Source: Eledone cirrhosa (Eukaryota). Taken from it: 64,000 bases of DNA. Both the position numbers and the translations under genes were made by a program. The stretch spans positions 46,438,001-46,502,000 of the forward strand of contig OZ024742.1 in assembly GCA_964016885.1 (NCBI GenBank), given 5' to 3'. A model generated the notes under the pieces. That model was not told where the DNA came from. It saw only the letters and a list, made by a program, of their open reading frames with translations, and did no database searches. Positions 9,199 through 46,322 of the stretch are shown one piece after another. Each line of letters starts with the position of its first letter. Within the stretch, counting starts at the first letter, position 1.

Positions 9199-9395
9199 AA
9201 CGAAGGAATTGTGGTAAGGAACCAGATGGACCATAACGCACCAGAGTACTCAATACTTAGGGTAGTAGAGTGGGTTATAGGAAAAAGTATGACCCCAACA
9301 GCAGAGCTCAAGCCGTTTCGACGGCTATTTCTGGACTCAGAAATAGCCGTCGAAACGGCTTGAGCTCTGCCGTCGGGGTCATACTTTTTCCTATA
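9199..9395 (-). mobile_element. Short fold-back element (IR 9276-9333/9338-9395) with hammerhead 3' half and tail
   Basis: Near-perfect 58-bp arms; GAA-ACGGC..GCCGT-C stem III and cleavage triplet; (TA)n on both sides; related copy at 46152-46320. Confidence 0.75.
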
Positions 9396-9479
9396 TATAT
9401 ATATAATGTAATGTATGAATGTATGTATATATGTGTGTGTGTGTTTGTGCATATGTATGTATATATGTATATATGCATG

Positions 9480-9630
9480 TCAGGTCGCTCTCGAATACTA
9501 CTGGTAACATGTAACCCATGGTCAGGTCGTCGGCGACCAAACCGTCAACCCCACCAGGCTTGGAGACCCTGCGAGATGAAATACAAGAGCCAGAAAAAGG
9601 CGGAGGAACTCAGCAGAATCAATGGCCATA
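9480..9630 (+). mobile_element. RTE-type 5'UTR-like repeat fragment
   Basis: Shares ggcggaggaactcag..tcaa(c/t)ggcca with 29877-30345, 32545-32800 and 52655-53090. Confidence 0.5.
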
Positions 9631-9642
9631 TATATATATATA

Positions 9643-9875
9643 TGTTAGATAATTCCGAAGGAAAAGCAAAGGAAAAAAGAGGGCTCTATGTATAGAACAG
9701 AGCTATTTAATTAGAAAGTGAACAACACAAAATATAACTACTCCATTGCCAAAGGTTTCTGGATCCCAGACAATATTAATATACGTCTGGATCGGTCATC
9801 ATCTCTGTCTGATGACCGATCCAGACGTATTTGGTAATGGAGTAGTTATATTTTGCGTTGTTCACTTTTTAATCT
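9643..9875 (-). mobile_element. Fold-back element with split or degenerate hammerhead
   Basis: IR 9710-9752/9830-9873 and inner IR 9781-9830; CTGATGA at 9809; the tail matches the tail at 13175-13237. Confidence 0.6.
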
Positions 9876-10024
9876 CTCTCTCTCTCTCTCTCTCTCTCTC
9901 TCTCTCTCTCTCTCTCTCTCTCTCTCTCTCTCTCTCTCTCTCTCTATATATATATATATATATATATATATATATATATATATCTATACACGCGCACATG
10001 CACATATATATATATATATATATG

Positions 10025-10205
10025 TGAGGCCCGGGTTCAATCAGGAGTAACCACAGTAAGTAAGGTACTCAATACATTATTAGAGTGTAAACATCAAGTT
10101 TAATATAGAAATAGCTTCTACAAGACTCTAGAACTGTTTCATTCAACAGAATTTGTATGAGGAAGTTGTAGTCCTGTAGAAGCCTATTTCTATATTAAAC
10201 TTGAT
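10025..10205 (-). mobile_element. Fold-back element, same family as 18540-18845
   Basis: IR ~10093-10125/10168-10205; minus strand reads GAAACAGTTCTAGAGTCTTGTA-GAAG followed by the tail tattgagtaccttacttactgtggttac. Confidence 0.65.
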
Positions 10206-10286
10206 ATATATATAACCAATACCAATAACGACGCTTTGCCTGTTTTACAGGACTATATATATATATATAGTTTTAATATAGATGAG

Positions 10287-10333
10287 ATTCTACAGGACTA
10301 GAACTGTTTCATTCTTTAGAAATCATCAGGAAT
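10287..10333 (-). ncRNA. Type I hammerhead ribozyme
   Basis: Minus strand: ATTC CTGATGA tTTCtaaaGAAt GAA ACAG ttctagtc CTGT A GAAT. Stems I-III and the core are present; cleavage triplet GUA. Confidence 0.8.
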
Positions 10334-44506: not shown

Positions 44507-44811
44507 TATTTCTCACTTTCCTGCCATTGTTATGGTTACGGCTGTTATTTCTATACCCAGAGTTATTGTTTATATTACTACTACCGTTAGTACCAGTAAT
44601 GTACTGGGTAATTTTCTGGCCTTGTGCCAATAGTAGAAACAGTTATTATTGTTGTTGTTGTTTACCTTTGCATTCCAAACGCATGCGCATGCGCAAAGAA
44701 GACAAAATAAAATAAGATAAACAAACAAGCAAATAAATAAATAAATATATAGACAGACTGAATAAAAAATGGCGTAGACATACAACACAACAGGAGGAAC
44801 AATGAATATAA

Positions 44812-44853
44812 CACCACTGACGATGTTGCAGATGTGCAACGAAAGATTTATGT
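44812..44853 (+). ncRNA. Minimal hammerhead in pLTR (mirror copy at 41406-41447, -)
   Basis: ca CTGACGA t GTTGCA gatg TGCAAC GAA AGATTT A tg; stem I is weak. Confidence 0.6.
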
Positions 44854-45117
44854 AAATTATGTAAACTATATATATGTGTTTGTGTCTATATTGTATCTGT
44901 ATTATTTTTGACCGCCGGTCAGTCAATGGCAACATTGAGGACCGAGTAAGTTAGATCGCAGATATAAAAGACAGCGAGAAGCGAAAACCAACCAAACAGT
45001 GAGTGTGTTCTGTTATTAATTCTGGCAATATTACGCAAATATGACCCTCCCCAAATATAACAATATATATATATATATATATATATATAGAGAGAGAGAG
45101 AGAGAGAGAGTGAGTGA

Positions 45118-45580
45118 AAGAGATTGTTATACTTTGGGCGGGTATGCTGCCAATAAAAATACACGCACCTGTTGATTTTCATTTCAATTTATTATAAGTT
45201 TCCGGTTGGTTGGTTGGTTCGATAACCGGAAGGTTCTTTATATATTGTCAAAGCTCTTTCGTCAAACATTCTGTGACCTCCTCAGTGACTAGGTTTCTAT
45301 TTTGTGTCCTACACCATCTTGCTTTTGTGTGTTGTGTGTTGTGTACTTAGTTTGTGCATGCGTTACATCCGTGTGTGTGCGTGGGTGTATTTTTATTTAT
45401 TCATTTATGTGTTTATTTACTTGTCACTAGTTGGTTGTTTGTTCTATCTGTGTGTGTCCGATTTGTTTTGTTAGTCATAATAAATTGAAGTGTAAACCAA
45501 CAGGTGCGTGTGTTTTTATTGGCAGCATGACCCTGCCAAAGCATAACAATATCTGTTTCAATACACGTTTTCAGATAAAC
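45118..45580. mobile_element. Non-coding fold-back derivative of the 13724 Naiad-like family, hammerhead at 45247-45289 (-)
   Basis: IR ~45123-45196/45477-45551; minus strand GTCA CTGAGGA gGTCAcagaatgttTGAC GAA AGAGCT T TGAC. Confidence 0.75.
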
Positions 45581-45651
45581 TCAGATTACATTTATATATA
45601 TATATATATATATATATATATATATATATATATATATATATAATAATAATA

Positions 45652-46130
45652 ATAAATGTAATCTGAGTTTTTCGAATATTAATAATAACATTCGATTCGT
45701 TTGCAATTATGCAAACAAGCCTCAATTTTATAGCCATGTCAGTAGAATGAACCCTTCATTATTGCTCTTGTGTTGGCATGTGAACAGGACTGCAGACACT
45801 AATGTTCCTGGGTATCACCCTTCATCAGAGCTAGTGAAAATATATGCTATTTTCAAAAATACACAGTGACTGATCGACCTGATTTGCATATTAGTAGACT
45901 GGCTGATCAGTCAGATCTGCATATGATGAAGGGTGATACCCAGAAACATTAGTGTCTGCAGTCCTGTTCACATGCCAACACAAGAGCAAGAATGAAGGGT
46001 TCATTCTACTGACATGGCTATAAAATTGAGGCTTGTTCGCATAATTGCAAACGAATCGAATGTTATTATTAATATTCGAAAAACTCAGATTACATTTATT
46101 GTATTCAGCCATGGAGAGCGACAATTATAT
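45652..46130. mobile_element. Fold-back element (IR 45652-45827/45924-46099) with degenerate hammerhead
   Basis: Plus strand 45917-45961: CTGCA t ATGATGA aGGGTgatACCCa GAA ACATTAGTGT C TGCAG; the other arm retains CTGATGA. Confidence 0.72.
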
Positions 46131-46151
46131 ATACATACATACATAGATATA

Positions 46152-46322
46152 TATGAAAAGTGTCAGAACCCCGATGACTGAGCTCCGGCCGTTTCGACAG
46201 CTAGAAACGGCTGGGGCTCAGCCGTCGGTCCTGAATCTTTTCATACTACTCATTCTACTAGCCCAAGTATCGAGTACTCTCGTGTGTTATTGTCTAGCTG
46301 GTTTTTACCACCCCCTATCTGA
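46152..46322 (+). mobile_element. Short diverged fold-back element related to 9199-9395
   Basis: GAAACGGC..GCCGTC; tail ..aagtatcgagtactct. Confidence 0.65.

Follow-up and report, generated by a model that had tools for sequence, protein, structure and literature searches.

Paired bulged hairpins lie just beyond both 3' junctions of Hydra-clade Penelope-like elements in Eledone cirrhosa

Introduction

How Penelope-like elements (PLEs), the sister group of telomerase, choose the start site of reverse transcription, and how their inverted arm and one-sided tail originate, are open questions; only one PLE has been reconstituted in vitro so far. The closest described relatives of the elements considered here form the Hydra clade (Craig et al, 2021; PMC8557442). 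We analysed Hydra-type insertions in 64,000 nt of Eledone cirrhosa contig OZ024742.1 ("the window") and across this 3.0-Gb genome. As in the available part of the Hydra description, they have one short open reading frame (ORF) carrying reverse transcriptase (RT) and GIY-YIG endonuclease (EN) domains, a DKT motif, a CxCX5C linker, (TA)n targets, and an inverted arm with an optional tail. Tails in that part of the paper are 30–40 nt and are ascribed to EN resolution, whereas they are ~60–90 nt here, and no mention of a tail hairpin or of a twin arrangement was found in it. By eye, the hairpin reported below can nevertheless be recognized in its consensus sequences, at the 3' ends of Hydra-2_Amil and Hydra-2_Ajap, twice at the 5' end of Hydra-1_Ajap, and as a variant in Hydra-1_Crog.

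In PAc, a Poseidon element of Anolis (Frangieh et al, 2024; PMC11167929; available part), the tail is likewise delimited by two internal RT start sites, nicking and extension occur on both strands, ~55 nt of RNA located 3' of these sites are needed, and a dimer is predicted. PAc belongs to another clade, however, and initiates without target homology in an AC-rich stem-loop that is part of the ORF. The Hydra sites, by contrast, have TA microhomology and are located in the 5' untranslated region (UTR), and no repeated conserved hairpin is described in that part of the PAc paper.

Hydra elements would have their second priming site fixed beside a conserved structure and copy one region twice. 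In L1 twin priming, both target strands prime cDNA and an inversion is left, but the second priming site arises from chance microhomology and there is no duplication of the region. RT-bound bulged stem-loops also set the start of synthesis in hepadnaviral epsilon and in the template-flanking elements of telomerase RNA. Epsilon templates protein priming from its bulge; the Hydra start would be primed by target DNA at a point 5' of the stem and outside it. The likeness is an analogy only.

The motif is undescribed in the literature that we searched, which left out subscription papers, Repbase and Dfam notes. In the available text, "hairpin" is absent from PMC3846280, and both "hairpin" and "tail" are absent from bioRxiv 10.64898/2026.07.22.740005 and PMC12910113.

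Results

The hairpin and the elements that carry it

The initial annotation of the window listed eight hairpins of the type ACTC..GAGTRC or GCTC..GAGC beyond the ends of untailed arms. All eight are present, and all fold as RCTC/GAGY with a 2-nt 3' bulge; the covariant GCTC..GAGC form is real (13179-13199(+) and 9683-9703(-), both GCTC-TGT..ACA-ta-GAGC). In register, a site consists of RCTC, three paired bases, a loop, a T-initial 2-nt bulge and GAGY, usually followed by AC or GC. The loop varies from 3 to >50 nt, while the bulge is conserved and the upper stem covaries. The pattern RCTC-N10-22-GAGY-N-C with (TA)4 28–62 nt downstream occurs eight times in the window, compared to a mean of 0.33 and a maximum of 2 in 40 shuffles that kept TA runs. 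Genome-wide, ACTC..GAGTAC..(TA)5 has 39,837 forward matches against 542–2,169 in the reversed control (reverse-strand counts of the ACTC form are inflated by TA register), and the GCTC form has 15,596 against 113. A pattern for tandem hairpins gave 3,818 matches against 1,482 in the control, a count dominated by one satellite. Separately, a 58-nt satellite extending over at least 7.5 kb (G000:C1:14233476-14241882; L127-L150) has a unit that includes the hairpin of family A.

Each site belongs to the 3' tail of a head-to-head insertion in (TA)n, where a tail extends one of the arms; as suspected when the motif was first linked to RT/GIY-YIG machinery, these are the tails of Hydra-clade PLEs. 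The autonomous family HydA has intact ORFs of 709–713 aa, each a single frame with RT plus a GIY-YIG domain at the C terminus; the GIY-YIG call combines a sub-cut-off Pfam match of a related window fragment (E 0.008) with the motif by eye. Also by eye, HydA has RWR, DKT and a CNCRNRVDC linker and lacks CCHH, with CxxC and CxH flanking the EN end; its relative P0007 has RWK. HydA slightly exceeds 3 kb in length owing to a long 3' UTR, and its tailed copies carry the GCTC-form hairpin. (TA)3 or longer is joined by 76/85 HydA and 55/60 family A 3' ends. The carriers are assigned to the Hydra clade on the basis of these motifs and of the 38–56% identity seen in the best 120 of 834 relatives of full length.

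In body copies of families A, E2, F15 and F54, the tail continues into ORFs that are 35–52% identical to HydA. The window families are therefore probably stumps of different Hydra families. The ORF link covers A, E2, F15 and F54; that of family I is by position alone, and families N and D lie outside it. The initial annotation had considered the families "otherwise unrelated", which is not the case: by flank similarity, the eight sites represent five families (9244 with 46248, 9680 with 13178, 10065 with 18781, and 13395 and 25610 each alone), probably different Hydra families. Another (TA)n-adjacent family (L151:560-660, L166, L340) has a perfect hairpin with ACTC-GTTTTC-GAGTAC near the TA run.

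Two hairpins, two junctions

Full-length elements contain the hairpin twice, with a spacing of 55–89 nt, in the stretch from the ribozyme to the start codon. The second copy (hairpin 2) starts 6–10 nt past the point where tailed copies join (TA)n, and becomes visible where the tail continues into an element body, as in body copies of HydA, A, F15, F9 and E2. Untailed ends meet (TA)n ~6–8 nt before hairpin 1 (range 4–17), and tailed ends ~6 nt before hairpin 2. Tail length is the spacing between the two hairpins; typical tails are ~60–90 nt, with some up to ~180.

We plotted junctions relative to the hairpin, a check that the initial annotation had suggested, taking the first base of the TA run as the junction (microhomology reaches 2–4 nt further). 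In both HydA and family A, the ends peak at two fixed offsets. For HydA, 34/76 TA-joined ends fall at -10..-5 from hairpin 1 and 33/76 at +81/+83, with hairpin 2 at +89. For family A, the corresponding values are 25/55 at -9/-8 and 26/55 at +72, hairpin 2 being at +78. The same two peaks are present in loci chosen without the motif (42/49 for HydA and 31/34 for family A). Among contigs of run X1, the commonest listed loose ends precede hairpin 1 by 3 nt (132 contigs) and hairpin 2 by 4 nt (100 contigs), although these counts are not independent if this run is the genome's own source, as is possible.

The conserved cis signal proposed earlier beside the untailed junction is therefore supported, at a fixed distance; what had been overlooked is that the hairpins are paired, with matching spacing at the tailed junction. 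Likewise, the short offset and the TA join of the untailed arm hold, but the proposed range of 3–9 nt is in fact 4–11 nt in the window, and the distance reaches 17 nt in some families.

A motif-blind search for palindromes with one arm at (TA)n yielded 80 clusters (false palindromes included), of which 62 included a member whose locus had been picked without the motif. RCTC was found 3–17 nt past the arm end in 21/62 (shuffle mean 4.6, maximum 11), and the full RCTC..TN-GAGY at this distance in 16/62 (shuffle mean 0.5, maximum 3). In the first pass of this search, 16 of the 22 best hairpins had a 2-nt bulge, and shuffles were spread evenly over 0–3.

Some copies start at a TA run at or near the first or second site, either as solo tails or as bodies beginning at the tail end (L254, L256 and L277 from metagenomes; L154 and L169). 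Solo tails make up 4/114 tails, too few for interpretation.

Hairpin 2 is not in the tailed insertion, hairpin 1 is not in the untailed arm, and each is near its junction, so the simplest reading is that they act in the template RNA. We consider it reasonably probable that the RT docks on each hairpin in the RNA and is thereby made to start just 5' of it, on both nicked strands. The equal distance of hairpin 2 from the tailed junction speaks for RNA priming rather than for product cleavage.

That same spacing bears on the idea that the motif is read as DNA, with the GIY-YIG domain recognizing double-stranded DNA or folded cDNA, nicking TA a few bases away, and trimming or resolving the intermediate. 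The ascription of tails to EN-mediated resolution (PMC8557442, available part) agrees with this, as does the requirement of the D. virilis EN for tail sequence in cleavage (as cited in the available part of PMC11167929). Further, the 3' flank, GAG-YR-CTC, is near-palindromic, with ACTC next in 33/66 cases. However, hairpin 2 lies beyond the tailed end, and is absent from the cDNA, yet has equal spacing, and loops of 3 to >50 nt with a fixed bulge suit a folded single strand rather than a duplex site. We regard DNA recognition as unlikely.

Covariation and a test in metagenomes

For 13 families hand-picked for having the hairpin (kept from a 23-row MAFFT alignment that misplaced short hairpins), RNAalifold gave a consensus of 4 bp, a 2-nt 3' bulge and 3 bp, and 5/7 pairs were changed on both sides, including GTTC/GAAC and TCTC/GAGA. 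Compensatory changes, whose absence would have spoken against the initial annotation, are thus present among these picked families. In several copies of HydA hairpin 2 (L153:5904-5921(-)), the loop is a C(UUCG)G tetraloop, a weak hint of sense-RNA folding.

As the unbiased test, we then applied the hairpin model from E. cirrhosa to 78 Hydra-type metagenome loci, the best 78 of 387 confirmed, which were fetched via a 61-protein alignment (a single-protein scan gave 39 candidates, 0 of them confirmed). Of 109 matches, 102 were sense and 7 antisense; 83 of the sense matches lay within 200 nt 5' of the ORF start and 19 lay 3' of the ORF. For the 52 ORF starts with enough flank, 45 had a match and 25 had two, spaced 55–83 nt. 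Using the lower stem as an anchor, at least two hairpins were found in 31 of 47 distinct 5' regions, one in 14 and none in 2, and two or more anchors occurred in 0/52 antisense and 0/147 in-ORF control windows. The first upper pair was Watson-Crick in 62/66 hairpins at a 2-nt bulge (C-G 39, T-A 23), compared to 0, 1, 10 and 8 at bulges of 0, 1, 3 and 4. Tails could be followed as well: in 16 loci examined, five tails run into TA, three of them with a body copy, and in all three (3/3) the end lies 6, 8 or 9 nt before hairpin 2. The hairpin pair is a clade-wide cis element in a known class of retroelements.

As the last model match ends 10–47 nt before the ORF start in 35/45 cases and both junctions have TA microhomology, the hairpins might instead serve translation start, packaging or some other role, with junctions just using nearby TA dinucleotides. 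Given that the junction peaks are sharp despite AT-rich tails, and that the offset from both hairpins is similar in unalignable families, we consider this highly improbable.

Arms, tails and ribozymes

We compared arms in 52 palindromic insertions from five families (three Hydra-type and two Neptune-type). One tail was present in 50/52, two in one and none in one. Among the 50, the untailed arm reaches further 5' in 15 and the tailed arm in 12, and they are equal within 3 nt in 23; the longest excess of an untailed arm is 2,487 nt. Family variants are common to both arms at 181/195 positions in family A, compared to 0.53 between insertions, and at 21/24 in family I, compared to 0.40.

Equal arms, many of them without a spacer, and the shared variants are what would be expected if the tailed strand snapped back and was copied, hairpin 1 merely halting the returning polymerase; PMC3846280 (available part) put forward self-priming with an antisense template. 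Fold-back predicts, though, that the tailed arm is always longer, contrary to the 15/50 insertions above (later central deletions could explain some of them), and leaves hairpin 2 unexplained, which makes it very unlikely. Many family A arms end ~60–73 nt before hairpin 1, with nearly no spacer.

Alternatively, the hairpins could direct RNA cleavage or 3'-end formation just upstream, the two RNA 3' ends then being copied by end-initiated target priming. The geometry would give identical junctions, and PAc RNA-seq reads end at its two start sites (PMC11167929, available part). In the same source, PAc starts internally on unprocessed RNA in vitro, and the one-tail rule would need a coordination not expected of two free RNA pools. 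In addition, the hairpin is not a hammerhead cut site. We considered it as hammerhead stem III and rejected this, as it sits 66–104 nt past the core and 64/66 metagenome copies end in GAGC, without the U of NUH. RNA processing is distinctly unlikely in our view.

Hammerheads do occur nearby. Family I has a canonical minimal one, HydA and family A have cores that deviate from CUGANGA, and a CTGANGA core lies 73–100 nt upstream in 17/19 metagenome 3' matches. No hammerhead family was among the 150 listed of the 205 sub-threshold Rfam matches in the window; those listed are microsatellite or palindrome noise. The pseudo-long-terminal repeats of family A and HydA (L013, L153; window 9280-9391) keep hammerhead-like stems with deviant cores, yet both families are abundant.

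Proposed mechanism

In the docking model, the GIY-YIG domain would nick both strands of the (TA)n target, and each nicked 3' end (..TATA) would pair with a UA-rich spot 3–9 nt 5' of a hairpin. With RNA of one source locus as template, RT on hairpin 2 would produce the tailed cDNA, and RT on hairpin 1 would produce the untailed one; head-to-head joining of the two would leave a tail equal to the inter-hairpin distance. The behaviour of PAc described above is in agreement with this scheme. A dimeric enzyme is assumed by analogy to the published PAc prediction; our own homodimer prediction for residues 1–480 of a Hydra ORF, made with no alignment, scored zero and gave no verdict.

Several observations weigh against this model. 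Junction spacing is looser in some families (I: -17..-5; E2: -12..-8; F9: -13), and the family of site 20630 has no canonical 3' arm. HydA arm-variant sharing is uninformative (4/7, one site), unequal arms may partly stem from later deletions at palindrome centres, and some loci in the arm comparison were picked for having a tail. The metagenome loci contain near-duplicates and are the best 78 of the 387 confirmed. Upper pairs include nine G-U and six A-C, a split that favours neither RNA nor cDNA as the folding strand and with which DNA recognition is also compatible. Finally, individual hairpins have low stability (-2.7 to -8 kcal/mol, z -0.3 to -3.4), and free folding of three whole 5' regions favours other pairings; protein binding therefore has to be assumed.

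Sites and features in the window

Of the sites where ACTC had been reported alone, 23462 closes with a distant GAGT across a 53-nt loop, 27125 closes imperfectly with GAGC, and only 20630 is without a canonical 3' arm. The stem register of site 46248 begins at ATTC, position 46252. Sites 29478-29498(-), 14798-14833(-), 15481-15516(-) and 20310-20378(+) were absent from the initial annotation. Two pattern matches, 14042-14069 and 38042-38070, fall within EN coding sequence and lack a tail context; we treated them as chance. The features are as follows.

9200..9279, minus: family A tail, ~80 nt, separating the untailed end point from (TA)n
9248..9271, minus: hairpin 1, family A; ACTC-TAC..GTA-tt-GAGT, then AC; body copy L125 continues into hairpin 2 and a Hydra-type ORF
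9280..9391, unstranded: family A head-to-head arms; the untailed arm meets (TA)n 8 nt before the hairpin position
9683..9703, minus: hairpin 1, related to the 13179 family; sequence as given above
10067..10086, minus: hairpin 1, family-I relative; one broken upper pair
10271..10459, minus: inverted untailed arm, 97% identical to 18585-18773; stops 6 nt before the hairpin position
10503..10833, plus: broken Hydra-type GIY-YIG remnant, 46% identical to HydA; by its position, likely the body of the family-I insertion
11309..11463, minus: family D inverted untailed arm; stops 6 nt before the hairpin position
13179..13199, plus: hairpin 1, family D; sequence as given above
13397..13420, minus: hairpin 1, family E; ACTC-TAC..ATA-tc-GAGT, with a mismatch in the third upper pair; a related tail in L165 reaches hairpin 2 and a Hydra ORF
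13429..13697, unstranded: family E head-to-head arms; the untailed arm stops 8 nt before the hairpin position
14798..14833, minus: additional hairpin; GCTC-TGA..TCA-tt-GAGC
15481..15516, minus: second copy of the preceding hairpin
16984..18010, plus: HydA fragment with RT end and GIY-YIG, 88–94% identical to a 713-aa ORF elsewhere
18711..18757, plus: minimal type-I hammerhead, family I; CTGATGA core, GAAA is GAAG in this copy (by-eye comparison with the family)
18781..18799, plus: hairpin 1, family I; ACTC-TGC..GTA-tt-GAGT
20310..20378, plus: long-loop hairpin; ACTC-CAA..53 nt..TTG-tt-GAGT
20612..20631, minus: deviant site; ACTC 9 nt beyond the family junction, no canonical GAGY arm
23397..23465, minus: long-loop hairpin; ACTC-CAA..53 nt..TTG-tt-GAGT; arm 23470-23676 stops 4 nt before; free folding favours another stem
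25610..25629, plus: hairpin 1, family N; ACTC-CAA..TTG-tt-GAGT; arms 25236-25605
27067..27126, minus: imperfect long-loop hairpin; ACTC..44 nt..tt-GAGC
29478..29498, minus: additional hairpin; GCTC-TGT..ACA-tc-GAGC
37885..38754, minus: fragment of a second Hydra-type family, for which the loci are too short to include the 3' end
46252..46275, plus: hairpin 1, family-A relative; ATTC-TAC..GTA-tc-GAGT

Window 10271-18846 is possibly a single family-I insertion, with arms 97% identical and 8 kb apart, that has been enlarged by nested insertions at TA runs inside it. A near-perfect 1-kb palindrome (27578-28579) has 497-nt arms and a 38-nt extension without the hairpin. Non-LTR retrotransposon remnants with AP-endonuclease/RT and RT ORFs (4275-7600, 53755-58229, 47767-51141 and 58883-61090) are unrelated to the hairpins.

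Neptune-type families

Two Neptune-type PLE families, recognized by eye from the linker and CCHH motifs, have two fixed 3' ends each (window 41150-45063 and 13724-14709; L366-L372, L373-L402). One is young, with many ORFs of 1,216–1,217 aa in ~4.1-kb tandems. RCTC/GAGY twin hairpins were not found beside the ends of these two families, where other stems occur: GTTT..AAAC, a stem with a 2-nt bulge whose upper part is compensatory, begins 6 nt after the first end, and the second end lies 9–10 nt before GCYT-N5-ARGC, in coding sequence. Coming from two related families with no control, these stems are a lead only. A GCTC..GAGC after the Neptune tail in L195 was considered as a Neptune hairpin 2 and rejected, as 11 other copies place it in another family's stump.

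Discussion

A broader proposal, which we hold as doubtful, is that insertion in all EN-bearing PLE clades relies on a single ribonucleoprotein, whose two clade-specific hairpins bring two RT subunits to the two nicked target strands. If so, the ~100-nt twin-hairpin module would be a portable signal for double-primed insertion, and the Neptune-type stems would be its second dialect.

The pair of 20-nt hairpins can serve as an annotation marker for true ends and 5' UTRs of Hydra elements. If the docking model is true, the hairpins would explain the one-sided tail of these elements, and moving or breaking a hairpin should move or abolish the matching end.

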